From the NCBI GenBank assembly GCA_965223415.1, contig OZ245002.1, positions 2,092,388 to 2,156,387 of the forward strand: a DNA stretch of 64,000 nucleotides, in the 5' to 3' direction. This DNA is from Myxococcota bacterium. Its GTDB lineage: Bacteria > Myxococcota_A > UBA9160 > UBA6930. The notes below the pieces were generated by a model. It was not told the DNA's origin. It saw only the letters and a program-made list of their open reading frames with translations, and ran no database searches. Position 1 is the first letter of the stretch. Every line of letters begins with the position of its first letter. Below, piece by piece: positions 22,188 to 61,803 of this stretch. Both the position numbers and the translations under genes were made by a program.

Positions 22188-22204
22188 GCCCCCTCCTCGT
22201 TTCA

Positions 22205-22290: not shown

Positions 22291-22306
22291 AGCAAGACCC
22301 GTGCCC
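22291..22306 (-). promoter_or_regulatory. candidate sigma54 promoter for the methyltransferase-pseG-wbqC-pseI operon
   Basis: The minus strand reads GGGCAC-gggtc-TTGCT, about 100 nt upstream of the GTG at 22187. Confidence 0.5.
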
Positions 22307-22322
22307 TGGCGCGGCGATTGCA
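22307..22322 (+). promoter_or_regulatory. candidate sigma54 promoter for the 22359 gene (and probably motAB)
   Basis: TGGCGC-ggcga-TTGCA, 37 nt upstream of the ATG at 22359. It abuts the minus-strand promoter directly. Confidence 0.55.
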
Positions 22323-22358: not shown

Positions 22359-22952
22359 ATGCGCCTGATCCAGGATGGACGGGAGTCCCAGGTCGAAGAC
22401 GGTGCGGAGAACGCGGAGGCCTTGCTCCTTCCGCGCCTCGCGCCCACCGGCGAGGATCCGCGGGTGGTCGTGCGCATGTGGCTCGACGGAAGCGACGTGC
22501 CCTCGAGCGAGCTCGGCGATCTCTCCGCGATCGCCGTGCAGGGCTGCGAGCTCCTGGAGGTAGAGACCGCGCCGGTGCGCGACGTCGCCCGGCAGAGCCT
22601 GGCGAGCGCGGGGGAGTACGCGGAGAAGGTGAAGGACGCTCTGCGGCATACCGCCGAGCTGATGCGCTCGGACCGTCCGGAGGTGGCCAACGAGCACTTC
22701 GCCGAGGCGATCGATGGGATGTCCGTGCTCTTCTTCACCCTCCAGGCCGCCGCTCAGCACCTCGGGCCGGAAGCTCGTCCGGTGGAGGAGATCGGCGCGC
22801 GCGTGCAGCCCTGGCTCGACGCCCTGACCGAGGCCCAGATCGCCCAGGACTGGATCCGCGTCGCGGACTACCTGGAGTACGAGATCGCTCCGGTGCTCGG
22901 AGAGGCGCGGGGCGCGATCGCCGCCGTGTGCGAGGGCGGCAGCCCGGGGTAG
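22359..22952 (+). CDS. hypothetical protein, flagellar-cluster associated
   Basis: ATG preceded by gaagaggaggag. 197 aa, acidic, with a helical C-terminal half. No recognisable domain. Confidence 0.6.
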   Translation: MRLIQDGRESQVEDGAENAEALLLPRLAPTGEDPRVVVRMWLDGSDVPSSELGDLSAIAVQGCELLEVETAPVRDVARQSLASAGEYAEKVKDALRHTAELMRSDRPEVANEHFAEAIDGMSVLFFTLQAAAQHLGPEARPVEEIGARVQPWLDALTEAQIAQDWIRVADYLEYEIAPVLGEARGAIAAVCEGGSPG

Positions 22953-24752: not shown

Positions 24753-26201
<1,449 letters not shown>

Positions 26202-34413: not shown

Positions 34414-35201
34414 GGGGCGCGCGTCTCGTCTCGGTGGTGAGCGGCAAGGGAGGCGTCGGCAAGACGAATCTCGTCGCGAACCTGGCGGTCTCTGCCGCCG
34501 GCCAGGGAGCCCGCGTGCTCGTGGTGGACGGCGATCTCGGCCTCTCGAACGTGGACGTGCTGCTCGGTCTCACGCCGCCGCGCACGGTTGCTGACGTGCT
34601 GGAAGGCCGCTGCAGCTTCGAGGAGGCGCTGCTCGAGGGACCGCGGGGCATCCACCTGCTTCCCGCCGCGTCCGGAAGGATGGACCTACCCGCCTGTCGT
34701 CCTGACGATCTGGCGGCGCTGCTGCTTCCCCTCTTCGAGGCGGCGTCCCGCTACGACCTGGTGCTGGTCGACGGCGGCGCCGGCGTCGGACCGGCGGTGG
34801 TCAGCCTGGCTGCGGCCTGCGATCGGGCGCTGCTCGTCGTGACCCGCGATCCCACCTGTCTGGCGGACGCCTATGCGACGTTGAAGGTGCTGGCCCGGGA
34901 GGCGCCGAGCCTTCGGGTCGAGGTGCTCGTGAACCTGGCGCGAGGCGAGCTGGAGGCCCGTGCGACCCACGCCCGTCTCGACCGGGTGGCCGGGCGCTTC
35001 CTCGGCACCCACCCGCCCTTTCGGGGCTACCTGCCCGTCGACCCGCGCCTCGCGGAGGCGTCGCTCCTGCAGCGGGCGGTCGTGGAGGCCTTCCCTTCCG
35101 CCCCTGCCGCCGAGAAGATCCACGACCTCGCCCGGGACCTGCTCGCCCTGCCGGGTCCGGGCGAGGCTTTGCTTCAACCCTCTCCGAGAGTCACGCCATG
35201 A
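34410..35201 (+). CDS. flhG: MinD-type ATPase FlhG/FleN
   Basis: Deviant Walker A SGKGGVGKT. GTGA overlap with flhF. Confidence 0.85.
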   Translation: MRGARLVSVVSGKGGVGKTNLVANLAVSAAGQGARVLVVDGDLGLSNVDVLLGLTPPRTVADVLEGRCSFEEALLEGPRGIHLLPAASGRMDLPACRPDDLAALLLPLFEAASRYDLVLVDGGAGVGPAVVSLAAACDRALLVVTRDPTCLADAYATLKVLAREAPSLRVEVLVNLARGELEARATHARLDRVAGRFLGTHPPFRGYLPVDPRLAEASLLQRAVVEAFPSAPAAEKIHDLARDLLALPGPGEALLQPSPRVTP

Positions 35202-36052
35202 ACGACCGCCTCAAGCCCTACCTCGCCGTCGTCGGCGATCTCCCCGGCATCCCCGCGATCGCCAGCCAGGTGATGAGCGCCGCCGCCGATCCGAACACCA
35301 GCGCCGACGATCTGCGTCAGGTCATCGAGCGGGATCCGGCGCTCGCCGCGCGCATCCTGAAGGTGGCGAACTCCTCGCTCTACTCTTTCTCGAAAGGGAT
35401 CGAGACGCTGCGGCACGCCATTGCCCTGCTCGGCTTTCGCACGGTCGAGAACCTGGTGATGGCAGCCTCGCTCCGGGACGTCTTCCAGAACTTCGGGCTC
35501 TCGGAGAAGCTGCTGTGGGAGCACTCGACCCTGGCCGGGTCGGTGGCGGCGAAGCTCTCGAGCTATGGGCCGATCGACGTGGACCGCGAGTCCGCCTTCA
35601 CGGCCGGCCTGCTCCACGATCTCGGCAAGATCGCGCTCTCGAACACCGCCCGCGAGAAGTACAACAAGATCATCATGCGGACCTACAACGAGGGCGTGTC
35701 CTTCCGCGACGCCGAGCTGGACGAGTTCGGCTTCGATCACGCGGAGCTGGGCGCTCTGGTGGGCGAGAAGTGGAAGCTCCCGGACCGGCTCGTCCACGCA
35801 ATCCGCTTCCACCACCACGATCCGCTGGAGTACCCGGACGGGCCGCCGGAGGACGGCCGCCTGATCGCGCTCACGGCGGTCGTCACACGCTGCTGCAGCC
35901 GGCTCGGCTACGGAAGGCGAGGCCCCATCGAGGCCATCGACGTGATGGAGCTGCCGGCCTGGAACCACCTCGACCTCGGCACGGCCGACATGGAGCCGAT
36001 CCTCGAGCTCGTGCTCGAGGAGGCGAAGAGCGCGGAGGGTCTGTTCGGCTGA
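35198..36052 (+). CDS. HDOD domain protein
   Basis: 284 aa with HDOD signatures (LPGIPAIASQVMS, LAARILKVANSSLY, AGLLHDLGK, FGFDHAELG). Translationally coupled to flhG. Confidence 0.85.
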   Translation: MNDRLKPYLAVVGDLPGIPAIASQVMSAAADPNTSADDLRQVIERDPALAARILKVANSSLYSFSKGIETLRHAIALLGFRTVENLVMAASLRDVFQNFGLSEKLLWEHSTLAGSVAAKLSSYGPIDVDRESAFTAGLLHDLGKIALSNTAREKYNKIIMRTYNEGVSFRDAELDEFGFDHAELGALVGEKWKLPDRLVHAIRFHHHDPLEYPDGPPEDGRLIALTAVVTRCCSRLGYGRRGPIEAIDVMELPAWNHLDLGTADMEPILELVLEEAKSAEGLFG

Positions 36053-47495: not shown

Positions 47496-47579
47496 GGAAG
47501 GGCGAATCGCAAGAACGATGCCGCGTTCTCGCCGGCGCTCGTCGTCCCTCGACGACGAATTGTGTCGCGACCTTTCGAC

Positions 47580-47590
47580 CTGAAACGCGG
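47580..47590 (+). promoter_or_regulatory. CTGAAACGCGG motif (candidate enhancer/UAS)
   Basis: Identical 11-mer to 61274..61284, about 140 nt upstream of the fliC sigma54 promoter. Preceded by gacctttc as at 24611. Confidence 0.4.
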
Positions 47591-47721
47591 AAGGCGTGCC
47601 GGTGGAACGGTGGTTCGCATCACACAAGTGCAGCGCGCGCGCATCCGCAGGGGAAAGGCCGCGCCGGCCTCTGGAGACGGCGAAACATGCATGCTAGGCC
47701 AGGCGTTTCGCCCAGGGCCGG

Positions 47722-47737
47722 TGGCACCCGCCTTGCA
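47722..47737 (+). promoter_or_regulatory. sigma54 promoter upstream of fliC
   Basis: Perfect TGGCAC-ccgcc-TTGCA, about 140 nt upstream of the fliC ATG. Confidence 0.75.
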
Positions 47738-47878: not shown

Positions 47879-48703
47879 ATGGGTCTTCGAGTCAACAACA
47901 ACATCGCTTCGCTCAACGCGCAGCGAAACCTCGCCACCACCACGAACAACCTGCAGCGTTCGCTGGAGCGGCTGTCCTCGGGTCTGCGGATCACTCGCGC
48001 GTCCGACGATGCGGCCGGTCTGGCGATCTCCGAGCGGTTCCGCGCCGAGGTGCGGAGTCTCCAGCAGGCGCAGCGGAACGCCAACGACGGCATTTCGCTG
48101 CTGCAGATCGCGGAAGGCGCCCTCAACGAGACGAGCGGCATCCTCACGCGTCTGCGCGAGCTCGCCATCCAGTCGGCGAACGGCACCCTCGGGACCGCCG
48201 AGCGCACCACACTGGACAACGAGTTCAACGACTTGGTGACGGAGATCGGGCGGATCGCCCAGGTGACGGAGTTCAACGGCACCAAGCTGTTGGACGGCAC
48301 GGCGCCGAGCGTCACCTTCCAGGTGGGATCGAACAACACGGCCAACGACCAGATCACGGTCACTGGCGTGGATGCCACTGCCACCGGAATCGGCATCAGC
48401 GCGGCCGGTATCGATACGGTTGCCAACGCCCAGGCGGCGCTGTCGCTGATCGACTCGGCCATCGGAACCGTCGCGTCCCTGCGCGCCGGCTTCGGTACCG
48501 CCCAGAACCGCCTCGAGTCCACGATCCGATCGATCGCGGTCTCCGTGGAGAACACCACGGCGGCCGAGTCCCGGATCCGCGACGTCGATGTGGCCTCCGA
48601 GACCGCCATCCTGACGCGGAACCAGGTTCTGCAGCAGGCCGGCATCTCGGTGCTCGCCCAGGCGAACGTGTCGACGCAGAACGCGTTGGCCCTGCTCCAG
48701 TAG
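47879..48703 (+). CDS. fliC: flagellin
   Basis: 274 aa with MGLRVNNNIASLNAQRNL, SSGLRITRASDDAAGLAISE and a C-terminal ILTRNQVLQQAGISVLAQANVSTQNALALLQ. Short variable domain. Confidence 0.95.
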   Translation: MGLRVNNNIASLNAQRNLATTTNNLQRSLERLSSGLRITRASDDAAGLAISERFRAEVRSLQQAQRNANDGISLLQIAEGALNETSGILTRLRELAIQSANGTLGTAERTTLDNEFNDLVTEIGRIAQVTEFNGTKLLDGTAPSVTFQVGSNNTANDQITVTGVDATATGIGISAAGIDTVANAQAALSLIDSAIGTVASLRAGFGTAQNRLESTIRSIAVSVENTTAAESRIRDVDVASETAILTRNQVLQQAGISVLAQANVSTQNALALLQ

Positions 48704-50636: not shown

Positions 50637-50968
50637 GCGCCCTGGCCGCCCGCGCCCGAGCGCTGCGGAAGGCGGCGATCGCCCTGGCGGCGGCGGTGGA
50701 GCAGGGCGAGCCCGAGAGCCTGGAGGCGGCCCTCTCCGTGAGGGAGACGGCCTTCGAGCAGCTCCTCGAAGGAGCCGGCGACGGCCTCGACGCCAAGAGC
50801 CGGCCGATCGTGGAGGAAGTGATCGCCCTCGACGCCCGGATCCAGCAACGGCTCCGCGAACAGCAGGCCGCGATCCGGGCCGAGCTCGACCAGATCGCCC
50901 ACACCCGCCGGGTGGTCGCCCGCGAGACCGCCGACGACGTACCGCGCTTCGTGAGCCGGCGCGCATGA
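50633..50968 (+). CDS. FliT-like helical protein (hypothetical)
   Basis: GTGA-coupled to fliS. 111 aa, all-helical, in the fliT position. Sequence similarity could not be verified. Confidence 0.4.
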   Translation: MSALAARARALRKAAIALAAAVEQGEPESLEAALSVRETAFEQLLEGAGDGLDAKSRPIVEEVIALDARIQQRLREQQAAIRAELDQIAHTRRVVARETADDVPRFVSRRA

Positions 50969-52005
50969 GCGACGAAGAAGCCCAGGAGGTGGCCGAACAG
51001 GCTCCGGAAGAGGAGCCCGAGACGACCGAAGAGGCCGAGAGCGGCGAGGCGGGCGCCGAATCGCCGGACGCGGCCGAGCTCGATGCGGAGGCGCTGGCCG
51101 GCGTGGCTCGGGACTTCGCCGCGACCTTCTCGAAGGACCTCTCCGCGCTCCTCGGTGCCGACGCGAGCCTCTCGGTCCAGGGCACTTCCGTCGCGCAGCC
51201 CGACGCGCTCGTGTGTCCCGACGCCGTCGTCGATCAGCTCGCGCGATGCGAGGGCGAGCCGGCCCGAAGTCTGCACGTGCTGGTTCCCGTTGCCGACGCC
51301 GTCGGAATGGGGGCTCTCCAGGCAGGCGGCGAAGGTGATGCGGTGACCGAGGCGCGGGAGGGCGGGGACTTCGCTGCCCACGCCGAGGCCTTCGGCGAGG
51401 TGATGAAGCTCGCGGCCGCTGTGCTCTCCAAGCTGCTCGAGCCCCACGGTGTCGGCCCGCTCGCCCTGCAGGACGCACGGCCGCTGGAGGACGCGGCGAG
51501 CGACACCTCCTGGCTCGGCGACGCGGCCCAGTGGTGCCTGCGCCTCGAGCTCGGCGTGGAGGGCTTCGACGGGGCGCCGCTCCTCGTCCTCCTCGAGAAG
51601 GTGGAGGGCGACGGCGAGGCGGATGCGGCCCTCGAAGACCTCTCGGTCGTGATCATCGACCCGGACGGAGAAGAGCGGGACCGCATCGAGGAGGTCGGAG
51701 AGCAAAAGGGCCGCGAGATCGCCGCCATCGATCCCGCAGAGTTCGACGACGACAGCCGCGAGTCGATCGAAGAGGCCGACGCGGTGATCGTTGCCTGGCA
51801 GCTCGGCGGGCGCTCCGGCCTCGAGCTCGTCGAGCATCTCGTGCGCCACGAGCAGACCTCGGGTACGCCGGCGCTCCTCGCCCACGATCTGGCCCATCGC
51901 GGGATGGTCGAGAGTGCGCTGCGCGCCGGCGCCCGCGGCTTCGTGCTCCGGCCCTACGACGTAGAAGAGATCGAGAAGGCCGTCACCGCGGCCCGCCGCT
52001 CCTAA
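50965..52005 (+). CDS. acidic N-terminal domain protein with C-terminal pseudo-receiver (REC-like) domain
   Basis: ATGA-coupled, 346 aa. The C-terminal 120 aa or so align by eye with CheY (VVIIDPDG..., DAVIVAWQLGGRSGLELV, GFVLRPY), with Ala at the phosphoacceptor position. Confidence 0.6.
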   Translation: MSDEEAQEVAEQAPEEEPETTEEAESGEAGAESPDAAELDAEALAGVARDFAATFSKDLSALLGADASLSVQGTSVAQPDALVCPDAVVDQLARCEGEPARSLHVLVPVADAVGMGALQAGGEGDAVTEAREGGDFAAHAEAFGEVMKLAAAVLSKLLEPHGVGPLALQDARPLEDAASDTSWLGDAAQWCLRLELGVEGFDGAPLLVLLEKVEGDGEADAALEDLSVVIIDPDGEERDRIEEVGEQKGREIAAIDPAEFDDDSRESIEEADAVIVAWQLGGRSGLELVEHLVRHEQTSGTPALLAHDLAHRGMVESALRAGARGFVLRPYDVEEIEKAVTAARRS

Positions 52006-52090: not shown

Positions 52091-52399
52091 CTAGACCTTC
52101 ATGTCGAGGAGCGAGCCCTTCAGCTCGAGCTCCGCGTCGAGGGTGCGCAGGGCGGCCTGACCGCTCACCAGCGCCTTGGTCTGCTCGATCTTCTCCCGCC
52201 CCAGGTCCACTTCGCGGGGATCCTTCGTCCGGTTCACCACAGCCTGGGGCCTCTGGCCGGCGTCGACGGCCTGCTGGACTTCCAGCGGATGGAAGTCCGG
52301 CGTGTTCAAGTTGGCCACGTTGTGCGCCGAGGCTTCGAGCCTCTTGGTGGCGACGTCGAGGCCGGCGAGGCCCGCCGAGGCGGCATCGGAGATCATCAT
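52091..52399 (-). CDS. small protein with flagellar rod N-terminal motif
   Basis: Start MMISD is preceded by gggaggaa. 102 aa with SAHNVANLNTPDF, matching the ANNLAN-x-T-x-GF(K) rod/hook signature. Lacks the C-terminal rod domain. Confidence 0.55.
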   Translation of the reverse strand: MMISDAASAGLAGLDVATKRLEASAHNVANLNTPDFHPLEVQQAVDAGQRPQAVVNRTKDPREVDLGREKIEQTKALVSGQAALRTLDAELELKGSLLDMKV

Positions 52400-52819
52400 C
52401 TTCCTCCCGCCCCTCCCGTGGATCTGCATCGTCGCTGGTTCCCCGCGGCTTGAGCCGATCCCCCCGGGCCTCCGGGGTTTCCCCGAGTGCACCTGCAGCC
52501 TTTCCCCGAGTCGGTGTCACCTGCACGGACGAATCGTGCACTCACGACCATGGAGCTCTTCCTTCTCGCCGGTTGTGCCTGCGTCGCGTGGACCGCCGCG
52601 GAGCTCGGACGCGCTGCGGCCAGGCCGTCCGCCTCCTTCGGCGCGATCGACGGGCGGGGTCGCCCCCTCGACGTGGTGCTCGATCGCCGGGCCGCCGCCC
52701 GCGGTCGCCGCACGGACGACGCCGCCAGTCTCTCCCTTCGCGTCTGACCAGGATCGGGGAAACGCCCGATCGACCGGAGCGCGCAGGCGACCGAAACGGG
52801 TCTCCGAAGGGAGTCGCCC

Positions 52820-53917
52820 GTGGGATCGAAGAACGCTCCGAACGAGGATCCGGCCCTCGACGCGCTCGCTGCGGCGCTTCGAGATTGGGGTGAGATGGCC
52901 ATCGCCCTGGCCGAGCGCGATCCGGACGAGATCCGCGAGGACTTCGACGGTTGGGCCCGGCACGCCGTACTGGCTGCGCCGCGCCCCGGTCTCGACGACC
53001 CGGGCGCGCCGCCCGCCGCTCACAAGGATTGGAACGGCCTCGGCCGCTTCGTGCGGGAGCACCGGCGAGCCGAGCACGACTTCGTCACGCGCAGCCTGGC
53101 CGACCTGCGACAGGTGATCTGGCACTTCGTCCAGAGCCTGGGACGCGCGATCAGCGAGGACCGCAAGGCCGACGGCGAGGTGGCCACCAAGATGCTCGAT
53201 CTGCGCCGCGCGGTGGAGTCGAACGACACTGAGGCTCTCAAGCGCGAAGCTCTCGCTTCGATCACGCTCATCCAGAGCCGCATCGAGGGCCGCAAGCGTC
53301 GCGAGCAGGGGCAGATCGAGGAGCTCTCCGGCAAGCTCGAAGACATGGCGACCGAGCTCGTGGAGGTGAAGGAGCAGCTCTCGGTCGACGCCCTCACGCA
53401 GGTGTGCAACCGCGCCGGCTTCGACGACCACGTCTCCCGCGTGGTGAGCCTGGGCTTCGTTCTCGGCCAGCCGGCCATCCTGTTCATGATCGACGTGGAT
53501 CACTTCAAGTGGGTCAACGATCGCTACGGGCACGGGGCCGGCGACGAGGTGCTGCGAAAGGTGGCCGCCCGGCTCGAGCACACCTTCCGCCGCAAGGGCG
53601 ACTTCCTGGCGCGCTTCGGTGGCGACGAGTTCGCCGCGGTGATCCTCGAGGACAGCCTGGAGATCGCCGATCGGATCGGCGAGCGCCTGCTCTTCGCGAT
53701 TCGCGACCTGGACGTCCCGTGGGAGGACGAGGAAGAGCCGATCCGTGTGTCGGTCTCGGTGGGCGCCGCTCGCCTGGAGCCCGGCGAGAACGCGACGAGC
53801 TGGTTCGAGCGCGCGGACCGCGCCCTCTACCAGGCCAAGGAGCTCGGCCGGGACCGGCTCGCCATCGCCACGCCGGACGGAAGCTCCCGGGAAGAGAGCG
53901 CCGCCGAGACCGAGTAA
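52820..53917 (+). CDS. GGDEF diguanylate cyclase with N-terminal helical sensor region
   Basis: 365 aa with an intact GGDEF site (ARFGGDEF) and an RxxD-type region upstream, preceded by a coiled coil. Confidence 0.9.
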   Translation: MGSKNAPNEDPALDALAAALRDWGEMAIALAERDPDEIREDFDGWARHAVLAAPRPGLDDPGAPPAAHKDWNGLGRFVREHRRAEHDFVTRSLADLRQVIWHFVQSLGRAISEDRKADGEVATKMLDLRRAVESNDTEALKREALASITLIQSRIEGRKRREQGQIEELSGKLEDMATELVEVKEQLSVDALTQVCNRAGFDDHVSRVVSLGFVLGQPAILFMIDVDHFKWVNDRYGHGAGDEVLRKVAARLEHTFRRKGDFLARFGGDEFAAVILEDSLEIADRIGERLLFAIRDLDVPWEDEEEPIRVSVSVGAARLEPGENATSWFERADRALYQAKELGRDRLAIATPDGSSREESAAETE

Positions 53918-53954: not shown

Positions 53955-55349
53955 TCAGGAGCGTGCTGCGGCCTCGCCCAGGATCGCGAGGGCGGCGATC
54001 CGGTAGGCCTCGGTCAGGGTCGGGAAGTTGAAGGCGCTCTCGACGAAGTCGTCGACCTCCCAGCTCGCCTGGATGGCGACCTGGGCCACGTGGATCAGGT
54101 CCGTTGCGCCTTCGCCGAGGATCTGAACGCCGAGCACCCGACCGTTCTCAGCGCTCGCGACCATCTTCAGCCAGCCTTCGGTGCGCCGGTTGATCACCGA
54201 TCGCGCCACCTCGTCGAGGCGCGCGCGGCCGACGACCGGCGTGAGGCCCTGCTCGGTGGCGTCGGCCTCGGTGAGGCCGACGGTAGCCAGATCGGGAATG
54301 GTGTAGATGCCCACGGGCAGGGTGGAGGCGCCTTCGCCGGCAGGGAGCCCCAGAGCGCGGGCGACGGCGCGGCGGCCCTGCTCCATCGCCGTCGTGGCCA
54401 GGGCCGGGGGCCCGATCACGTCGCCGACCGCGAGGACGTGGGGAATGGCCGTGCGCAGGTCCGCATCCACGTCCAGCAAGCCGCGCTCGTTCACGGCGAG
54501 CCCGGCCCTCTCCAGCTGTAGCTCCGGCAGACAGCCCACGCGACCGAGCGCCACGAGGACCTTCGTGGCTTCGAGGAAACGGCCGTCCTCCAGGGTCACC
54601 ATGCTGTGGGAGAAGCCGTCCCACTCGACGCCAGTGGCACGGGCCTCGGGGACGTAGCGCCCGCCGCGCCTCTCGAAGGCCTCGACGAAACCCGCCGAGA
54701 GCTCCGGGTCGAGGAAGGCCAGCGGGCGCGGCGCGCGGTCGACGATCGTCACCCGGCTGCCGAGGGTGGCGAACACCGAGGCGTACTCGCAGGCGATCAC
54801 GCCGCCGCCCAGCACCAGGAGGCTCTCGGGCACGTAGCGGAGGGAGAGGATCGAGTCGCTGTCGAGGACGCGCTCGTGATCGACGGTGATCTCGTCGGGC
54901 ACGCGCGGCCGGGAGCCCGTGGCGATGACGATGCGCTCCGCTTCGATCTCGGTCACGGCGCCCCGCGGCGTCGTGACCGAGACGACGTGCTCGGACTCGA
55001 ATCGACCGCGTCCGCGCTCGATCTCGATTCCGTTGCGCTCGAGCTGGGCGCGCATGAAGCGGCTGTGGCCGGCCAGGACCGCGTCCACGCGCGCCTTCAG
55101 CTCCGACAGGGGCAGGGACCGTTCGCCGCCCTCGGCCGGCTTCTCGTCGCCGTCGCCCATGGACTCGAGGGCGAGCTGGCGCAGGGTCTTGCTCGGGATC
55201 GTTCCCCAGTGCACGCAGGCACCGCCCACGTCCCGTCCGGACTCCACCAGGGAGACCCGCCGGCCGGTTTTTGCCGCGGCGATCGCCGCCTTCTGGCCGC
55301 CGGGTCCGCCGCCGATCACGAGCAGGTCGACGCGCCTGCGGTCGGTCAC
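53955..55349 (-). CDS. sthA: soluble pyridine nucleotide transhydrogenase-like flavoprotein disulfide reductase family
   Basis: 464 aa with GGGPGG FAD motif, GGACVHWGTIPSKTLR (a single Cys, as in SthA rather than Lpd) and a second GGGVIACEYA NAD motif. Confidence 0.8.
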   Translation of the reverse strand: MTDRRRVDLLVIGGGPGGQKAAIAAAKTGRRVSLVESGRDVGGACVHWGTIPSKTLRQLALESMGDGDEKPAEGGERSLPLSELKARVDAVLAGHSRFMRAQLERNGIEIERGRGRFESEHVVSVTTPRGAVTEIEAERIVIATGSRPRVPDEITVDHERVLDSDSILSLRYVPESLLVLGGGVIACEYASVFATLGSRVTIVDRAPRPLAFLDPELSAGFVEAFERRGGRYVPEARATGVEWDGFSHSMVTLEDGRFLEATKVLVALGRVGCLPELQLERAGLAVNERGLLDVDADLRTAIPHVLAVGDVIGPPALATTAMEQGRRAVARALGLPAGEGASTLPVGIYTIPDLATVGLTEADATEQGLTPVVGRARLDEVARSVINRRTEGWLKMVASAENGRVLGVQILGEGATDLIHVAQVAIQASWEVDDFVESAFNFPTLTEAYRIAALAILGEAAARS

Positions 55350-56188
55350 TCCCCATTCTCCAGCATCTCGCGGATGACGTCCCTTCGCGCGAGCAGGGCG
55401 TCGAGGTCGTCGGGGTAGATCCCCAGCTCGTCCAGGATCGGATCGGCGCGCAGGGCTTCCTCCTTGGCTTCGTCGTCCTCGTCCGCGTCGAGGAGATCGA
55501 AGAGGCGCTCGGCCAAGAGCACGAGAAGGGCGTCACGCGCCGCCGAGGCCCGCGGCGTCGATTCGTCGAAGGCGACCGTCTCGCGCACGTGCTCCGGAAG
55601 GCCCCAGCTCTCGGCCGCACGCAGCCCCAGGCGGAGCCGGAAGGCGGCCTCGAGCTCCCGGAACTCCTCTGGCGGCATGCGCGGATCGCTCGCCCGACGA
55701 ATCCGTGAGAGCGCACGGATCAGGAGTGCCGTGCCCACGTGGCGAAGCAGGCCCGAGAGGAAGGCGGCCTCGACGTCCTCGCGAAGCGCGCGGGCCACCT
55801 CCTTGGCGAACAGGCCGGTGCCGAGAGATCGCCGCCAGAGCTGGCGCAGCTCCTCCTGGAAGCCGGGGGCGTTGAACACGCCGTCTCGAACGCTCGCGGC
55901 CACCGCCAGCTCGACGACGCGCTGGACGCCGAGCCGCGCGATCGCCTGCTGCAGCGACACGATGGCGACACGGCCCGCCTGCATGGCGGAGTTCGCGTCC
56001 TTCAGGATCTCTGCCGCGAGGCCCTGATCGCGGTGGACCAGCTCGGCCAGATCGGCCGCTGCCGTCATCGGATCCGCCGCGGTCTCGAGCACGCGCTGCG
56101 CGACCTCCGGAAGGGGAGGCAGCTCGATGCGGCCCGCGTCGTATCGACGTTCGAGCTCGCGACGGAGTGATTCGAGACTGCGCGCCAT
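55346..56188 (-). CDS. HDOD domain protein
   Basis: 280 aa with LPPLPEVAQRVL, LAAEILKDANSA and GLLRHVG motifs. There is a 4-nt overlap with sthA. Confidence 0.85.
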   Translation of the reverse strand: MARSLESLRRELERRYDAGRIELPPLPEVAQRVLETAADPMTAAADLAELVHRDQGLAAEILKDANSAMQAGRVAIVSLQQAIARLGVQRVVELAVAASVRDGVFNAPGFQEELRQLWRRSLGTGLFAKEVARALREDVEAAFLSGLLRHVGTALLIRALSRIRRASDPRMPPEEFRELEAAFRLRLGLRAAESWGLPEHVRETVAFDESTPRASAARDALLVLLAERLFDLLDADEDDEAKEEALRADPILDELGIYPDDLDALLARRDVIREMLENGE

Positions 56189-56282
56189 CGCACTTCACCC
56201 GTCGGTGTTCCTCCCGGACACCTTTACAGGAACTCGCAGCTCCGGCGTGTCTTCGCTCGCAGGCCGGCGCCTTCGCTCGGCG

Positions 56283-56315
56283 ATGAAACGGAGCCGCTTG
56301 CAGGATGAAACGCGC
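56283..56315 (+). promoter_or_regulatory. ATGAAACGG / ATGAAACGCGC motif pair (candidate enhancer/UAS)
   Basis: Two copies 22 nt apart, 35-65 nt upstream of the sigma54 promoter at 56349. Confidence 0.4.
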
Positions 56316-56348
56316 CGGTGCCGAACGTGCCTCACGCGCACCCGCGAC

Positions 56349-56364
56349 TGGCACGTCGCTTGCT
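56349..56364 (+). promoter_or_regulatory. sigma54 promoter upstream of the PilZ-TPR-pseudokinase-activator operon
   Basis: TGGCAC-gtcgc-TTGCT, 27 nt upstream of the GTG at 56391. Confidence 0.7.
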
Positions 56365-56390
56365 CTTCCGTCTGCGAGGAGGATCGTCCC

Positions 56391-56930
56391 GTGAGCGACT
56401 CCGAGGCCCGGTCCGGTGATCAGGACCAGCGTTCCTACTACCGCGTCCCCACTTTTCTCCCGGTGCGCTGCCGTCGCGTCGGCGCCAGCGAGCTCGCCGC
56501 GCTAGAGGCGGAGATCCTGACCCACGAGTCCTTCGACGTCTCGAACGTCGATCCCGGGCTGTGCGAGTGGCTCGATCGCATCGAGGGAAAGCTCGACCGG
56601 ATCCTCGCCCACTACGAGTCCGAGGACGGGCGCTGGATCACCCCTGAAGGGCCGCTCGAGCTGACCCTCTCGGGCTCCGGTATCCGGCTGCCGGTGACGC
56701 AGGAGGTCGCAGTCGGGACCAACGTGCTGCTCGAGATCGTCCTGCCGGGAACGCCGAAGCAGGTGATCCGCTGCATCGGGGAGGTGGCGAAGAGCGACGA
56801 CGACGAGAAGGGCCCCGCCATCGCGGCGGGCTTCCGCGTCATCGCCGAGAGCGACCGCGACGCGGTGGTCGGCCACGTCCTGCAGGTGCAGCGCTCCGAG
56901 TTGCGGCGGCGCGCGTCGGGCGACGAGTGA
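56391..56930 (+). CDS. PilZ domain protein
   Basis: GTG follows gaggagga. RxxxR (RSYYR) and an xLSGSG motif in a PilZ beta-barrel context. Confidence 0.7.
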   Translation: MSDSEARSGDQDQRSYYRVPTFLPVRCRRVGASELAALEAEILTHESFDVSNVDPGLCEWLDRIEGKLDRILAHYESEDGRWITPEGPLELTLSGSGIRLPVTQEVAVGTNVLLEIVLPGTPKQVIRCIGEVAKSDDDEKGPAIAAGFRVIAESDRDAVVGHVLQVQRSELRRRASGDE

Positions 56931-59014
56931 TCGGCCGCCTCGCGATCGTCCTGCTCGGCACGGCCTTCGCTCTCGCGGGGGGGCCGGCGACCGCCGAGGA
57001 AGAGGTGCCAGCGGCCGGTCCCGTCGCGGTGCCGCCGGATCCCTTCGCCATCTTCTCCGCGCGCCGCGCCTGGCTGCCGGTGCTCGACGCGGTGGAGCCC
57101 TGTCTCCCCGCGGAGCCCCCGGACGCCCTTCGCCCGGTGCTGCCGTTCGTGCTGGAGGACCGGGAGTCGGCGACCCGCCGAGTGCTGGAGCTGGCCGAGG
57201 AGACCCGGCGCAAGGAGGGCGAAGGGCTCTCGGCCGATCTCCGCCTGTGGCTCGCGATCGCCGGCGCGCGGGTCGCCGATACGGCGGAGCGTCGCCACGA
57301 CGCGATCCGGACGATCGACCGGGCGCTGACCCGGGGTGGCGGCGGTGAGGCCCGGGTGTGCGCTTACCTCGAGCGCGCGCGAGCGGAGCTGCGCATTCAC
57401 CGGGCGCCGGAGGCGAGTGCCTCCGCGCTGCGGGCCCTCCGGGAGGGAGAGGCGGCGGAGCTGCCGCCGGCGCGTGTGGAGGCGGCTCGCTTCCTGCGGG
57501 CGGAGGCGCTCCTGCTCGCGGGCCGGGTCGACGACGCGCGCTCCCTCTACGAGTCCCTGGCCGCGGCGGACCGCCCTGGGGTCGCCGCCGCGTCGCGCCT
57601 CCGCCTGATCGAAAGCGTCGGAGGGGAGATCGATCCGGTGACGGCATGGAAGCGCCTGCAGGCGCGCATGGAGGAGGCGCGCGATGCCGACCTCGACCTG
57701 CGCGCCTTCGCGAGGGTCGCGACCGAGTTCGCGCTTCGCGCTGGCGATTCGAGGCGTGCGCTCCTCCATGCCTCCCGTGCGGCGGATCTGGAGGGCGACG
57801 ACCTGGCGACCGGACTCGCTGCCATCCGAAAGGCGGACGTGCTGGCAGCGCGGGATCGCGGCGCGGATGCCGCCCTCACGCTCCGGCGGCTCTCGGAGGT
57901 GCACCCGGACGTCGACGTACGGCGGCTGGCGACGATTCGGCTGGCCGTCCACGGGCTCGGAGGAGAGACCGCCGCGGAAGAGCGCGCGGTGCTGGAAGAC
58001 GCGGCGGCCTCGAGCGAGCGGGGGCTCTCGGTGTACGCCCGCGCGGTGCTGCTCCACCGCCATGTCGGAGAGGGTGAGGTGGATCTCGCCCTCGCCGAGT
58101 ACGCCCGACTGGCCTACGACGATCCCGACGACGTGCTCGCTCCGGACCATCGCGACGATCTCGACGCCGCCCTGCGCGCTGCGGTGGGCTCCCACTGCCC
58201 GACGACGGTGCGCCTGCTCGGCGGACGTCGCGAGCTCTTCCTGCGCCAGGCGCGGGTGAGCGAGCCCTTCGTTGCGCTGGCGGATTGCTACCTGGCGCTC
58301 GGCATGCCTGTGCCGGCCCTGGGTGCCTATCGCGCTGTCACCCGTGCCTTCGGCCCGTCGCTTGCCGCCCAGCTCACCCTGCGACTCGCCCGTGCGTCGC
58401 TCGGCGCGGGAGACCTGCCCGCGGTGCGCGCTGCCCTGCGCGCGCATCGGGAGCACCCCGGCGAGCCTCGGGGGGGCCTGGCGGGGGACAGCTGGCCCCT
58501 GTTCGAGGCGGAGCTGGCGCTGCGCGAGGGACGGGAGGAGGCGGCGGCGGAGCGGCTGCTCTCCCTCGTGCGCGGCGGACGTGCGCCGCTGCGCGCGCTC
58601 CGCCGGCTGGCGGAGCTCGTCGCCCGGGACAAGACCGGAGGCGAGGCGCTCGCGGTCCTCGAGGACGAGACCTCCCGCTGGCAGCTCGCGCCGGATCCCC
58701 TGGCCGACGCCGAGGAGGCGCAGATCCGTGCGGGCATCGCGCTGGTGGTGGCCGACCGGCTGCTGGCGCGGGACGAGACCTCCCGCGCCCATTACTACTA
58801 CGGGCTGGCCGCCGAGACCCTCGCCGACGGGCCCGAGCGCGCGCGTGCCCGCTTCGCACGCGCGCGCCTGAGTCGCGGTGAGCGGCGCCGGCGCGCCTTC
58901 GAGACCGCCGCCGAGCCGACCCAGGGCCCGGCCCTCTGGAACCGCCTCGCCGGCATCGAGCTGCGCGCCGCCGAGCTTCGAGCGGAAATCGGGCGCGCGG
59001 AGCCGACACCGTGA
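56927..59014 (+). CDS. secreted TPR-like/helical-repeat protein
   Basis: GTGA-coupled, 695 aa. Signal peptide (LAIVLLGTAFALAGGPATA) followed by Ala/Leu/Arg/Glu-rich helical repeats. Confidence 0.55.
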   Translation: MIGRLAIVLLGTAFALAGGPATAEEEVPAAGPVAVPPDPFAIFSARRAWLPVLDAVEPCLPAEPPDALRPVLPFVLEDRESATRRVLELAEETRRKEGEGLSADLRLWLAIAGARVADTAERRHDAIRTIDRALTRGGGGEARVCAYLERARAELRIHRAPEASASALRALREGEAAELPPARVEAARFLRAEALLLAGRVDDARSLYESLAAADRPGVAAASRLRLIESVGGEIDPVTAWKRLQARMEEARDADLDLRAFARVATEFALRAGDSRRALLHASRAADLEGDDLATGLAAIRKADVLAARDRGADAALTLRRLSEVHPDVDVRRLATIRLAVHGLGGETAAEERAVLEDAAASSERGLSVYARAVLLHRHVGEGEVDLALAEYARLAYDDPDDVLAPDHRDDLDAALRAAVGSHCPTTVRLLGGRRELFLRQARVSEPFVALADCYLALGMPVPALGAYRAVTRAFGPSLAAQLTLRLARASLGAGDLPAVRAALRAHREHPGEPRGGLAGDSWPLFEAELALREGREEAAAERLLSLVRGGRAPLRALRRLAELVARDKTGGEALAVLEDETSRWQLAPDPLADAEEAQIRAGIALVVADRLLARDETSRAHYYYGLAAETLADGPERARARFARARLSRGERRRRAFETAAEPTQGPALWNRLAGIELRAAELRAEIGRAEPTP

Positions 59015-59063
59015 CGACCACCCGCGACGCGGAGCCGACACCGTGACCGCCACCCGCGACGCG
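59000..59063 (+). repeat. 32-bp tandem duplication spanning a gene junction
   Basis: gagccgacaccgtgacgaccacccgcgacgcg is followed at once by gagccgacaccgtgaccgccacccgcgacgcg (2 mismatches). Each unit contains a GTGA start/stop overlap. Confidence 0.9.
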
Positions 59064-59606
59064 GAGCTCGCCTCGGCTCTCCTCGACCTGCGCGCTCCCT
59101 TGTCGCGCATCGAGCTGGCGGCGAGTCGGCTCGACCGCGAGGAGCGGACGCCCCGCACGGGCGAGCTCGCGCGAACGATTCGCGAGGCCGTGGCGGCCGC
59201 CGATCACAAGCTCGAGCTGGCGTTGCGGGTGCTGGCGCCGCCCGCAGCGGAGCCGGCCCTTCCCGCGGCAGGTGTGCTGGAGGAGCTCGCCCTGCGGCTG
59301 CGTCCCGTGCTGGCGGCGCGTGGTCTCGAGCTGCGGGTCCACGGCGAGCCTTCGCCGGCCCTCGATCCCGCCGTGCTCCGTCGCGCCGCCATCGCCCTGG
59401 CCGGCACCGCGGCGGAGCTGGCGGAGGCGGGGCCGGTCGAGCTCCGTCTCGTGTCGGGGGAGGGGCGCTGGGGAGTCGAGGCGTGCTGGAGCGCCGCCGC
59501 CGGCGAAGGCGCCGCACTGCGCCGCCTCCGACCGCTGGCCCTCCTATGCGGCGGGGAAGCCTGTCACACGGACCGGGGCGCCGTCTTCTGGATGTCGACT
59601 TCGTGA
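59043..59606 (+). CDS. degenerate histidine-kinase-like protein (no phosphoacceptor His, no N/G boxes)
   Basis: 187 aa. The H-box-like stretch LLDLRAPLSRI stands where SHELRTPL is expected. It is followed by a short HATPase-like region without recognisable N, G1 or G2 boxes. Coupled (GTGA) to the downstream activator. Confidence 0.45.
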   Translation: MTATRDAELASALLDLRAPLSRIELAASRLDREERTPRTGELARTIREAVAAADHKLELALRVLAPPAAEPALPAAGVLEELALRLRPVLAARGLELRVHGEPSPALDPAVLRRAAIALAGTAAELAEAGPVELRLVSGEGRWGVEACWSAAAGEGAALRRLRPLALLCGGEACHTDRGAVFWMSTS

Positions 59607-60895
59607 GGGTGCTGGCGCGCCTCCGGGACGCCGGCCTGCGCCGGGACGTCCTCGCCATCGCCCGCGCCGCCGGCTACGCGGCCGAAGAGGGCGCGAGCGA
59701 TGCGGCGATGCTCGCCAGGGTGGAGCGGGGCGGCGTCGACGCCTCCCTGGTCGAGGTGAGCCGGCACGCCGACCTGCACCTGATCGAGGAGCTGCGCCGC
59801 CTCGCGCCGGACGTCGGCGTCGTCGCCGTGGGCGGACGGCCCGGCGTGGACCTGGTGGTCGACGCGTTTCGGGTCGGTGCCTCCGACTTCCTGCGCATGC
59901 CCTTCGACGTCTCTTCCCTGGAGCGGGCGCTGGCCCAGGTGCTGCGGCGGGAAGGCGCCGGGCCACGGGAGAGCGCCTTCCTCACCGAGGACGCGACCAC
60001 CCGGGGCCTGCTCGACCAGCTGCGAAGGGTGGCGGCCAGCGAGGCGACGGTTCGTCTGGTCGGCGAGTCCGGCACCGGCAAGGACCTGCTGGCCCGCTGG
60101 CTCCACGAAACGAGCTCGCGTCGTCACGGGCCCTTCGTGGTGGTGAGCTGCGCAGGGCTCGCGCCGAGCCTCGCCGAGAGCGAGCTTTTCGGTCACGTTC
60201 GCGGCGCCTTCTCCGGCGCGGTGGAAGCGCACCCCGGGCAGCTCGCCACCGCCGACGGCGGAACGCTGGTGCTCGACGAGATTGCCGACCTCCGCCTGGA
60301 GCTCCAGCCGAAGCTCCTGCGCGCGCTCCAGGAGCGCGAGGTGATTCCTCTCGGCGGGCGGACGCCCCGGCCCCTCGACATCCGCGTCGTGGTCACCACC
60401 CAGCGGGACCTGGGGCAGGAGGTCGCCGCCGGTCGCTTCCGGGCCGATCTCTACTACCGGCTCGACGTCGTCACCCTGCGCATTCCGCCCCTGCGCGAGC
60501 GGCCCTCGGACGTTCCCCTGCTGGCGCGCGCGTTCCTCGACCGCTTCGCCGCCGCCTCGGGCAGCGAGCCGGCGCGTCTGGACGACGAGGTCATCGCGGC
60601 GCTCGCGTCCCGCCCGTTCCGGGGCAACGTGCGCGAGCTGGAGAACCTGATGCGGCGCGCGGCACTCCTCTTTCCGGGGCGTTCCATCGACCCGGCCCGG
60701 CTGTTCACCCCGAGCGCGAGGTCCGGGGGAGGGATGACGCCGGGTCTGCGCTCGCTGAACCTCCGCGAGCTGGAGCGCGCCGCCGTGATCCGCTCCCTCG
60801 AGATGACAGGCGGCAACCGCACCCTCGCCTCGCGCGCCCTGGGCATCAGCGTGCGCACCCTGCGCAACAAGATCCGGCAATACGAGCTAGCCTGA
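59603..60895 (+). CDS. sigma54-dependent transcriptional activator with degenerate receiver domain (FlbD-like)
   Basis: 430 aa. Degenerate REC (Glu at the acceptor position, Lys replaced by Met), AAA+ (GESGTGKD, GAFSGA loop variant, ELFGH) and a Fis-type HTH. Confidence 0.9.
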   Translation: MRVLARLRDAGLRRDVLAIARAAGYAAEEGASDAAMLARVERGGVDASLVEVSRHADLHLIEELRRLAPDVGVVAVGGRPGVDLVVDAFRVGASDFLRMPFDVSSLERALAQVLRREGAGPRESAFLTEDATTRGLLDQLRRVAASEATVRLVGESGTGKDLLARWLHETSSRRHGPFVVVSCAGLAPSLAESELFGHVRGAFSGAVEAHPGQLATADGGTLVLDEIADLRLELQPKLLRALQEREVIPLGGRTPRPLDIRVVVTTQRDLGQEVAAGRFRADLYYRLDVVTLRIPPLRERPSDVPLLARAFLDRFAAASGSEPARLDDEVIAALASRPFRGNVRELENLMRRAALLFPGRSIDPARLFTPSARSGGGMTPGLRSLNLRELERAAVIRSLEMTGGNRTLASRALGISVRTLRNKIRQYELA

Positions 60896-60900
60896 GCCGC

Positions 60901-61242
60901 GTGATCAGCGCGTCCCAGCTGCGCAAGCTCGCCCTTGCCCTGCCGGGCGTCGAAGAAGGCACCTCCTACGGCACCCCCGCCTTCCGCGTGCGGAAGAAGC
61001 TGCTGGCGCGCGTGTCCGATGACGGCGAGTCCCTGGTCCTGCGCATCGACATGACGGATCGGGAAGCCCTGATGCGGAGCGATCCCAAGACCTTCTTCGT
61101 GACCGACCACTACCGCGACCACTCCTGGGTGCTGGTCCGGCTGGCGACGGTGAAGAAGGGCGAGCTGGCCGCGCTCTTCGAGCGGGCCTGGCGGGACGCG
61201 GCGCCGGCGAAGCTGATCGCGGAGCACGGCGCGCGGCGCTGA
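60901..61242 (+). CDS. MmcQ/YjbR family protein
   Basis: 113 aa with LPGVEEGTSYGTPAFRVRKKLLA, typical of the YjbR fold. Confidence 0.7.
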   Translation: MISASQLRKLALALPGVEEGTSYGTPAFRVRKKLLARVSDDGESLVLRIDMTDREALMRSDPKTFFVTDHYRDHSWVLVRLATVKKGELAALFERAWRDAAPAKLIAEHGARR

Positions 61243-61273
61243 CCCGGCACGAACGTCCCACCCGTCGTTCAAG

Positions 61274-61284
61274 CTGAAACGCGG
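61274..61284 (+). promoter_or_regulatory. CTGAAACGCGG motif (candidate enhancer/UAS)
   Basis: Identical 11-mer to 47580..47590, about 78 nt upstream of the flgB sigma54 promoter. Confidence 0.4.
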
Positions 61285-61351
61285 TGCTGCAAGGCGGGAG
61301 GCTCGCGGCGTCCCTGGCGGGCCGAGAGCGCGCGAGACCGCCAGCCGGCGG

Positions 61352-61367
61352 TGGCACTCGCCTTGCA
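61352..61367 (+). promoter_or_regulatory. sigma54 promoter upstream of flgB
   Basis: Perfect TGGCAC-tcgcc-TTGCA, 44 nt upstream of the ATG at 61411. Confidence 0.75.
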
Positions 61368-61410
61368 CTGGTTCCTGCCGACGCTCCCCGTGCGGGGATG
61401 GGAGGAGACG

Positions 61411-61803
61411 ATGCCCGGGCCGATGAACGGAGCCATGCCGCTGCTGGAGGACGCGATGCGCTTCCGGCTGGCGCGCCAGGCCGCGCTCGCGGGCAACGTC
61501 GCGAACGCGGACACGCCCGGCTATCGCCGCGTCGATCTCGAGTTCCAGCACGCGCTGGCGCACGCTGCGGCCCGGCTCGACCGGACGCACCCCGACCATC
61601 TCGGAACCGGAGGAGAAGGGGCGAGCGCGGACTACCGCGTCGTGCGCGGGCCCCGCGGCACGCGGCCCGACGGCAACGGCGTCGAGCTCGACAGCGAGCT
61701 GATCGCCCTCAACCGCAACGCGGGGGCGTTCCAGGACCAGGCCGCGGTGCTCTCGCGCCTCCACGTGCTTCGCCGGATCGCCGTCACAGGGGAGGGCCGC
61801 TGA
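61411..61803 (+). CDS. flgB: flagellar proximal rod protein FlgB
   Basis: ATG follows gggaggag. 130 aa with LAGNVANADTPGYR and a C-terminal LNRNAGAFQ. Confidence 0.85.
   Translation: MPGPMNGAMPLLEDAMRFRLARQAALAGNVANADTPGYRRVDLEFQHALAHAAARLDRTHPDHLGTGGEGASADYRVVRGPRGTRPDGNGVELDSELIALNRNAGAFQDQAAVLSRLHVLRRIAVTGEGR

Follow-up and report, generated by a model that had tools for sequence, protein, structure and literature searches.

We analyzed a stretch of 64,000 nucleotides (nt) from a Myxococcota bacterium (contig OZ245002.1), called here the window, with a base composition of 71% G+C, and studied in it a four-gene operon placed between positions 56,349 and 60,895. The operon encodes a PilZ-domain protein, an exported protein with a tetratricopeptide repeat (TPR)-like fold, a protein of 187 amino acids (aa) related to histidine kinases, and an activator of sigma54-dependent transcription (enhancer-binding protein, named here EBP2). 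On our best reading, the locus is an operon with a regulatory role in a sigma54-dependent flagellar regulon, and belongs to a lineage of uncultured polar-flagellate bacteria labelled as Myxococcota or Deltaproteobacteria. The features of the operon and of the region just downstream are listed below, where L numbers designate related loci from other genomes.

56283-56313 (+): putative enhancer of the operon (upstream activating sequence, UAS), with two TGAAAC half-sites, of which TTGCAGGATGAAAC (56298-56311) fits the palindrome described further on
56349-56364 (+): predicted sigma54 promoter of the operon, TGGCACGTCGCTTGCT
56376-56382 (+): ribosome-binding site GAGGAGG, between the sigma54 promoter and the GTG start at 56391
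56391-56930 (+): PilZ-domain protein, 179 aa (Pfam PilZ, profile match in the Protein Data Bank (PDB), codon-position test)
56927-59014 (+): exported TPR-like alpha-solenoid, 695 aa, with a GTG start that overlaps the PilZ stop (signal peptide, AlphaFold2 (AF2) model, Foldseek)
59000-59063 (+): 32-bp tandem duplication, with copies at 59000-59031 and 59032-59063, in which the GTGA stop/start junction is repeated (read from the sequence)
59043-59606 (+): predicted pseudo-histidine kinase, 187 aa (profile match in the PDB, AF2/Foldseek)
59603-60895 (+): sigma54 enhancer-binding protein EBP2, 430 aa, with a GTG start that overlaps the preceding stop (Pfam)
61267-61281 (+): enhancer motif of the flgB promoter, GTTCAAGCTGAAACG, conserved before flgB in L001, L008-L011 and L013-L015
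61352-61367 (+): predicted sigma54 promoter of the flgB-flgC-fliE-fliF operon, an exact match conserved in related loci

The element at 56349 is an exact copy of the -24/-12 sequence TGGCAC-N5-TTGCT and ends 27 bp 5' of the GTG start of the PilZ gene, with its GG and GC doublets spaced 10 bp inside the pattern TGGCAC-N5-TTGCW. Four exact matches to this pattern, the one at 56349 among them, were found across the window, and six when one mismatch was permitted, against 0.75 expected, a number reached in none of 100 shuffles. A preliminary description of this DNA had already proposed a consensus sigma54 promoter at this point, followed by four translationally coupled genes. The promoter sequence was confirmed, and it is conserved in all ten related loci scanned, 30-90 bp before the first gene (L001, L003, L004, L008-L011 and L013-L015). 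The coupling holds for two of the three junctions, where GTGA overlaps are found (56927 and 59603), but not for that between the 695-aa and the 187-aa genes, which are separated by a gap of 28 nt. This gap, which uncouples both genes, is due to the 32-bp tandem duplication, whose unit (GAGCCGACACCGTGAC, then G or C, then A or G, then CCACCCGCGACGCG) appears twice and spans the stop of the 695-aa gene together with the beginning of the next one, that of the pseudo-kinase; the orthologs show a plain 4-nt overlap at this junction.

Codon alignments against three orthologs, or two in the case of EBP2, showed that substitutions are enriched at the third codon positions of the plus-strand frames in all four genes. 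The differences per site at codon positions 1, 2 and 3 were 0.24, 0.19 and 0.62 in the 695-aa gene, and 0.26, 0.17 and 0.54 in the 187-aa gene. The four genes of the operon are real and under purifying selection. An antisense open reading frame (ORF) of 848 aa (56612-59158, minus strand) has a higher G+C content at third codon positions than the 695-aa frame that it faces; it was rejected as an artefact of the GC-rich sequence, because the third-position substitutions sit in the plus-strand frames. No sigma70 promoter was found in a scan of the region 55900-61500, so no basal promoter was identified that could start the loop discussed below, and terminator-like sites appeared in the same region at chance level.

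The 187-aa protein had no Pfam or NCBIfam family match above threshold, and weak HisKA matches were detected in 12 of the 15 members of its family. When the family profile was compared with the PDB, it matched histidine kinases (GacS 7z8n with E 1.6e-5, also EnvZ and CusS) along the dimerization and histidine phosphotransfer (DHp) domain and the first half of the catalytic and ATP-binding (CA) domain. In the profile alignment the column of the phospho-acceptor His is occupied by Leu14, and that of the Mg-binding Asn of the N-box by Ala123. The window protein contains no Asn at all, and a G1/F/G2 lid, a transmembrane segment and a sensor domain are also missing from it. Its AF2 model, produced from the single sequence with a mean predicted confidence (pLDDT) of 73.7, shows a hairpin of two helices and, after it, a small alpha/beta sandwich. 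All the top 50 Foldseek matches of this model were of the kinase DHp-CA type (Bergerat fold), with E values down to 1.9e-6; 46 of them are bacterial histidine kinases, including RetS, GacS, ShkA, ZraS, DivL, CpxA and HK853, and the remaining four are three mitochondrial pyruvate dehydrogenase kinases and one plant phytochrome. From profile and model, the protein is predicted to be a histidine-kinase descendant made of a DHp dimerization hairpin and a lidless CA remnant, unable to bind ATP in the usual way or to carry a phospho-His.

A scan of 1.84 billion representative proteins with a hidden Markov model of the family (threshold E<=1e-10) retrieved 158 clusters, nearly all of them of 190-240 aa; narrower searches returned three species genomes with a trimmed alignment and 15 relatives with a word index. 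The H-box was aligned in 131 short members of the family and in five longer proteins that align with them. A His is present in this column in one of the 131 short proteins versus all five long ones, and among the short members 14 have no His at all and 44 no Asn. Four of the long proteins are true hybrid kinases, with the His, both Asn residues of the N-box and the G1/F/G2 boxes; the fifth, of 300 aa, scores above the Pfam cutoffs for HisKA and HATPase_c and has the His, without the N-box Asn and the lid boxes. The DxGxG and GLGLGL motifs are visible in four of these five proteins, and the lid segment is about 20 residues shorter in the short family (25 residues versus 40-46 in the long proteins). 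The most conserved stretch of the short family, LRxPLSRIELAASRL, corresponds to DHp helix 1, which in true kinases is the docking surface for the response regulator, as in the HK853-RR468 complex. A reading as a decaying pseudogene was rejected on the basis of family size, conservation and selection pattern, and the loss of phosphotransfer is best described, from these alignments, as a trait of the family and not as decay.

The protein encoded by the last gene, EBP2, has a Sigma54_activat domain (PF00158, E 2.8e-58), an AAA lid and a Fis-type DNA-binding domain (HTH_8, PF02954, E 1.9e-10). The Walker A (GESGTGKD) and Walker B (LVLDE) motifs are intact, and the loop that contacts sigma54 reads GAFSGA in the clade of the window, most orthologs having GAFTGA and a few a degenerate version. 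Its profile matches in the PDB include the AAA+ structures of ZraR, NtrC1, FlrC and FleQ, and also NifA, and several of its orthologs are named FlrC by JGI. The likeness to Caulobacter FlbD pointed out in the preliminary description is reflected in the NCBIfam comparison, where FlbD (NF050807) was the best model, with 334.9 bits, well below its cutoff of 750. An identity as FleQ was rejected, as the N-terminal domain of FleQ (PF06490) was not among the Pfam matches at E<=0.01. In five distant orthologs (P0212, P0241, P0243, P0245 and P0255) the GAFTGA loop is deleted or degenerate, in some of them together with an altered Walker B; orthologs of this kind may no longer activate sigma54 alone.

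The receiver domain of EBP2 reached 21.4 bits against the Pfam cutoff of 30.2 (PF00072). It was aligned with those of 38 orthologs, four canonical outgroup activators, and E. coli CheY and NtrC. At the positions of CheY D12, D13, D57, T87 and K109, EBP2 carries L, R, E, G and M; the four outgroup activators, NtrC and CheY have the complete DD-D-T-K set. The DD pair is absent from all 38 orthologs, the position of T87 is a Gly in 32 of them, and a two-residue deletion in the beta3-alpha3 loop is common to all. The acceptor position in the 38 orthologs is occupied by D (22), E (10), A (4), G (1), T (1) or Q (1), and this variation argues that the position is not in use as a phosphorylation site. 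The receiver of the window EBP2 is therefore predicted to be non-phosphorylatable, with the ATPase and DNA-binding domains intact. These alignments agree with what had been read by eye at the outset, that is, a kinase-like protein with no His and no N, G1 or G2 boxes, and a receiver with Glu at the acceptor position, Met in place of Lys and no acidic pair: they place Leu14 and Glu at the two phosphotransfer positions of the window proteins, and the Thr is also gone from the receiver. The degeneracy as a conserved trait of the family had not been noticed then, nor had the flagellar context, the downstream sigma54-dependent flgB operon or the shared enhancer described next.

A near-palindrome, GTTTCA-N3-TGAAAC(GCG), has seven matches in the window against 0.13 expected. 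The five sigma54 promoters of the window each have such a site 45-150 bp to their 5' side, as follows.

enhancer at 22205, promoter at 22307
enhancer at 36396, promoter at 36527
enhancer at 47580, promoter at 47722
enhancer at 56298, promoter at 56349
enhancer at 61274, promoter at 61352

In the related loci scanned, a second sigma54 promoter precedes flgB (that of L010, GGCACGGCGATTGCA, was read by eye and not matched by pattern), and the enhancer motif is present with most of the promoters of the orthologous operons and of flgB, the operon promoters of L009 and L011 being without a clear site. The promoter at 61352 is a likely direct target of the activator. The helix-turn-helix sequence of EBP2, GNRTxASxALGISVRTLRNKIR, is nearly invariant across the 38 orthologs, and this constancy over loci in which the enhancer is conserved fits EBP2 as the enhancer binder, although it is not a proof of it.

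Two of the other promoters deserve a comment. The flagellin gene (about 47880-48703) has its own exact sigma54 promoter and enhancer (region 47573-47737). The region 22199-22322 contains the palindrome and a promoter with one mismatch (TGGCGC, 22307), 5' of a 197-aa gene (22359-22952, plus strand) located upstream of motA. This gene shares 42% identity with the gene that opens the orthologous operon in L013, and the gene in that place in L014 also bears the label DUF8042 in precomputed Pfam annotation, so that the DUF8042-like gene has moved between flagellar operons.

The cluster holds a second sigma54 activator:

24753-26201 (+): EBP1, between motB and fliL

Its receiver passes the Pfam cutoff (49 bits) and keeps the acidic pair as D-E and the Lys, with Glu at the acceptor and Ala at the T87 position; the acceptor Asp is thus absent from both activators of the flagellar cluster. 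EBP1 and EBP2 are 39% identical over the AAA+ and helix-turn-helix domains, and their recognition helices differ. The best NCBIfam models for EBP1 were AtoC and NtrC, and its sigma54-contact loop is the canonical GAFTGA.

The operon sits in a flagellar cluster that takes up the greater part of the window; some genes of the cluster were confirmed by Pfam, and the others were read from ORF translations that were not scanned. The cluster is arranged as follows.

5' part: motAB, EBP1 (24753-26201), fliLM...flhBA, flhF, flhG and a gene for an HDOD protein
middle part: flgFG-flgAHI, flgN, flgKL and csrA-fliW
3' part, before the operon: flagellin gene, fliDST, and genes for a receiver-like protein, a GGDEF protein and a second HDOD protein

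Downstream of EBP2 and of a small yjbR-like gene comes the exact sigma54 promoter at 61352, followed by flgB-flgC-fliE-fliF, with FlgB, FlgC and FliE identified by Pfam. The YjbR-family gene (60901-61242, plus strand; Pfam E 9.5e-14) lies between EBP2 and the enhancer and promoter of flgB, and is absent from that position in all the related loci examined. No fliA (sigma28) gene was seen at its usual position after flhG, and csrA-fliW is present; the whole flagellar hierarchy may run on sigma54.

The gene-neighborhood survey suggested by the preliminary description found the same order, that is, a PilZ gene followed by genes for proteins of about 700 and about 200 aa and for an activator, and then flgB-flgC-fliE-fliF-fliG-fliH-fliI-fliJ, in at least 11 distinct loci. 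By gene calls the arrangement was seen in L001/L002, L003, L004/L005, L009, L010, L011, L013, L014 and L015; the flg genes are cut off by contig ends in L003 and L004/L005, and in L011 only flgB follows the activator. L012 shows a partial arrangement, and L008 a match to the kinase-like protein together with both promoters. Among the related loci the identity of the TPR protein goes down to 31% and that of the activator to 52%, and the pseudo-kinase and activator genes are adjacent and translationally coupled in every locus. The sources are uncultured metagenome-assembled genomes labelled as bacterium, Deltaproteobacteria, Myxococcales or Myxococcota.

Other genes of the cluster were also noted. 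A plus-strand gene at 50968-52005 encodes a 345-aa protein whose C-terminal receiver is borderline (29.5 bits versus 30.2). A GGDEF cyclase (52820-53917, plus strand) and two HDOD proteins (35198-36052, plus strand; 55346-56188, minus strand) are encoded in the cluster, and the receiver-like, GGDEF and HDOD genes are syntenic with the operon in several relatives, which suggests a wiring of motility to cyclic di-GMP (c-di-GMP). Between the receiver-like and the GGDEF genes lies a small conserved gene (52091-52492, minus strand; 101 aa in relatives) that weakly matches the motif at the N-terminus of the rod proteins FlgB/FlgF. Judging from their translations, the ORFs at about 12450-21600 may encode a PseB-like dehydratase, an aminotransferase, a NeuB-like synthase and a cytidylyltransferase, and NeuB and CTP_transf_3 genes flank the operon in L013 and L014; such sugar-nucleotide or nonulosonic-acid genes next to flagellar genes would be consistent with flagellin glycosylation.

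The first two proteins of the operon were also studied. The PilZ protein reached 24.8 bits against a Pfam gathering cutoff of 22.5, and its L014 ortholog 44.6 bits. It consists of a single PilZ domain with about 50 helical residues inserted between the two motifs. The RxxxR motif is intact (R14, R18), and the second motif, TLSGSG, keeps SxxG with the D/N replaced by T; across seven orthologs R14, R18, S94 and G97 are invariant and the D/N position is T, I or Q. The PilZ fold initially proposed is supported, and the protein may be a c-di-GMP receptor. The best PDB match of the family was the flagellar clutch YpfA/MotI of B. subtilis (5vx6, E 1.4e-5).

The 695-aa protein, for which a signal peptide and helical repeats had already been proposed, had no Pfam or NCBIfam match above threshold. 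A word-index search placed 16 proteins in its family, of which three match TPR models of Pfam weakly, and the N-terminal signal peptide and four Cys residues are kept throughout. The AF2 model, built with 15 sequences, is an all-alpha TPR-like solenoid of about 35 helices (pLDDT 86.7; predicted TM-score, pTM, 0.74). Foldseek returned generic TPR superhelices all along the list, with TM-scores of about 0.3, and at rank 4 the flagellar periplasmic scaffold of C. jejuni (9hmf_K). A sequence search of the family against the PDB yielded weak SRP72 and designed-TPR matches, and none at the level of sequence to the Campylobacter scaffold; the likeness to the latter is one of predicted fold, and a generic one.

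Phosphotransfer residues are gone from both the activator and the kinase-like protein, and the flagellar genes are therefore probably switched by protein binding; the system in this lineage appears to have become phosphate-free. We give a probability of about 60% to the reading that the operon encodes a flagellar regulator similar to FlbD/FliX that works without phosphorylation, and whose partner descends from a histidine kinase. In this mechanism EBP2, as an activator of the FlbD/FlrC type, would most likely bind GTTTCA-N3-TGAAAC, and its ATP hydrolysis would open the sigma54 promoters of flgBC-fliEF, flgFG, the flagellin gene and the motAB-containing operon. The same enhancer upstream of its own operon would produce positive feedback, which is plausible because the operon promoter shares the motif with the flagellar promoters. 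The dimer of the pseudo-kinase and the pseudo-receiver of EBP2 would probably still dock through the ancestral DHp-receiver interface, and the pseudo-kinase would hold EBP2 off or on in a stoichiometric way, gating its oligomerization, as in FliX/FlbD and NifL/NifA. A binding switch of this kind would tie the expression of late flagellar genes to a cue from assembly or from a second messenger, and the PilZ and exported TPR proteins may feed c-di-GMP or periplasmic information into it, or be co-expressed motor accessories.

Several points weigh against this phosphorylation-independent regulator. The Asp is kept at the acceptor position in 22 of the 38 orthologs of EBP2, and the Lys in most of them, and residual phosphorylation may persist in some of these relatives. 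The GAFSGA loop of EBP2 departs from the canonical GAFTGA. The contact between the pseudo-kinase and EBP2 is a predicted one, and the structural model of the pseudo-kinase derives from a single sequence (pLDDT 73.7), with Foldseek TM-scores of 0.3-0.4. The operon encodes no membrane-spanning protein that could link the periplasmic protein with the cytoplasmic pair. EBP1, from the same cluster, could be the one that binds the enhancer, in which case the operon would be a step in a cascade and not a feedback loop. Finally, the acceptor Glu of the window EBP2 could mimic a phosphorylated residue, like that of the D54E variant of NtrC, which is partly constitutive; EBP2 would then be constitutively active and need no partner.

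The alternative that survives best concerns the first two genes, and is compatible with the explanation proposed for the pseudo-kinase and EBP2. The PilZ protein could act on the motor as a brake or clutch that depends on c-di-GMP, in the manner of MotI/YcgR, and the TPR protein could be a periplasmic motor scaffold or an assembly factor like PflA/PflB, both merely co-expressed with the early flagellar genes, and we hold this to be only slightly short of an even bet. The match of the PilZ family to YpfA/MotI fits with it, as do the export of the TPR protein, its conserved Cys pairs, the appearance of the C. jejuni scaffold among its top structural matches, and the lack of a membrane-spanning link to the cytoplasmic pair. 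However, the fold matches of the TPR protein are the generic ones described above, and the four genes keep their order in every locus even though the DUF8042-like gene moves, with a strict co-translation with the regulators that hints at a functional link. Input to the regulator from c-di-GMP through PilZ, or from the periplasm through the exported protein, is a speculation, and both proteins may be read equally well as motor parts.

A more ambitious version of the phosphorylation-independent regulator would see in the pseudo-kinase and the pseudo-receiver a co-evolving, phosphate-free "two-component" switch that runs a flagellar assembly checkpoint throughout the lineage, as an intermediate between FlgSR/FlrBC and FlbD/FliX. 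The docking of DHp and receiver would be its sole signaling contact, modulated by c-di-GMP through PilZ and by the state of periplasmic assembly through the exported TPR protein. We put it forward tentatively, as doubtful in its full extent.

A cascade headed by EBP1 seems to us still somewhat less likely. According to it, EBP1 would bind the shared enhancer and switch on all the sigma54 flagellar promoters, that of the operon included, while EBP2 would act later or on a subset of them, or as a hetero-oligomer partner or modulator of EBP1. Two cooperating flagellar activators have a precedent in FleQ/FleT of Rhodobacter, one motif type at all five promoters means that one binder would be enough, and EBP1 has the canonical GAFTGA and a better preserved receiver than EBP2, a few of whose distant orthologs, with their degenerate loops, may not contact sigma54 alone. 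Against the cascade, it is the helix-turn-helix of EBP2 that is nearly invariant in the loci where the enhancer is conserved, and the enhancer flanks the EBP2 gene immediately on both sides; besides, EBP1 itself is apparently downstream of a sigma54 promoter with the same motif (22307), so that the problem of how the loop is started would only be moved.

It is improbable that EBP2 is constitutive or autonomous by virtue of its Glu, with the 187-aa protein as a remnant or in an unrelated role (chaperone, assembly factor): the Glu of the window clade, the behavior of NtrC D54E and the indirect nature of the case for an interaction with the pseudo-kinase speak for it, but orthologs also carry A, G, T or Q at the acceptor, which are not phosphomimetics, and the 187-aa gene is under purifying selection, belongs to a family that preserves both its size and DHp helix 1 over at least 158 clusters, and has a strict order and translational coupling with the activator in every locus.

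Returning to the regulator that works by binding, what makes this system of interest is that both halves of a former two-component system appear to have lost catalysis, yet they are coupled, under purifying selection and present in many genomes. It offers a natural case in which to ask if the kinase-regulator docking interface alone can carry a signal, and how a phosphorelay turns into a binding switch, and its conserved enhancer and five promoters are a ready-made set of reporters. It also documents a flagellar regulon that appears to run entirely on sigma54, in flagellated bacteria related to the Myxococcota, which are known above all for motility without flagella. The switching of pseudo-receivers is largely unknown despite their being common (PMC12632262), and how activators of the FlbD type sense assembly without a kinase is an open question (PMC7064773).

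In our literature searches for a module of PilZ, TPR, pseudo-kinase and enhancer-binding protein, or for a flagellar pseudo-kinase, nothing specific was found, in agreement with the absence of a described precedent stated in the preliminary description. What would be new here is the combination of a minimal, lidless and His-less kinase remnant with a pseudo-receiver activator, within a conserved operon that also encodes a PilZ protein and a TPR protein for export, and that heads a flagellar regulon. The parts themselves have known counterparts. The PilZ protein resembles MotI (YpfA/DgrA) and the YcgR brakes in its PilZ domain with RxxxR and in being encoded with flagellar genes, but it differs from them in having a single PilZ domain with a helical insert of about 50 residues and Thr as the first residue of D/NxSxxG, and in its co-transcription with regulators.

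Pseudo-histidine kinases and pseudo-receivers are recognized classes (PMC12632262). DivL and RetS, which are both among the top Foldseek matches of the 187-aa protein, share with it the kinase DHp-CA fold and signal through protein contacts without autophosphorylation of a His. They are, however, large multidomain proteins with a full-size CA domain and functional regulators or kinases as partners, whereas the protein described here is minimal and its presumed partner is a pseudo-receiver. NifL is another protein derived from a histidine kinase, and controls the sigma54 activator NifA by stoichiometric binding, with no phosphotransfer. Unlike the 187-aa protein, NifL has retained PAS sensors and a GHKL domain that binds nucleotides; in NifA a GAF domain takes the place of the receiver, and the pathway is nitrogen fixation and not flagella.

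Among flagellar activators, FleQ/FlrA has a pseudo-receiver that is never phosphorylated, responds to c-di-GMP and has a protein antagonist, FleN (PMC12632262). The likeness extends to the FlhG/FleN homolog encoded in the window and to the match of EBP2 to the AAA+ structures of FleQ. It differs in that c-di-GMP binds to FleQ directly, whereas the present operon has a PilZ protein apart from the activator, and in that the partner of FleQ is an ATPase and not a kinase-like protein.

The gene order is that of FlgS-FlgR, FlrB-FlrC and FleS-FleR, in which a kinase gene followed by a sigma54-activator gene is found beside flagellar genes, and the 187-aa protein is predicted to be soluble and cytoplasmic, like the kinase FlgS. 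These pairs drive the sigma54-dependent operons for rod and hook in polar flagellates with FlhF/FlhG (PMC7064773, PMC3930126), where the two-component system senses the assembly of the MS-ring, rotor and export gate before rod and hook genes are transcribed (PMC7064773). This polar-flagellate programme fits the organism, because FlhF and FlhG are present. The differences lie in the 187-aa protein, which has no His, N-box Asn, G1/F/G2 lid, PAS or other sensor domain, and in the receiver of EBP2, without the DD pair and the Thr and with a variable acceptor.

The control of sigma54 activators without phosphorylation is already known from FlbD/FliX, FleQ/FleN and NifL/NifA. In Caulobacter crescentus, FlbD is independent of phosphorylation and is controlled by the binding of FliX (PMC3096577, PMC3930126, PMC7064773). 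Both cases involve a sigma54 flagellar activator with a diverged receiver that appears to work without phosphorylation and without a cognate active kinase, and a small partner encoded among flagellar genes, which binds directly in Caulobacter and is proposed to do so here. On the other hand, EBP2 is not a FlbD equivalog by its NCBIfam score, FlhF and FlhG are present here and not in Caulobacter, and the operon is sigma54-dependent by promoter prediction, whereas flbD and fliX depend on CtrA.

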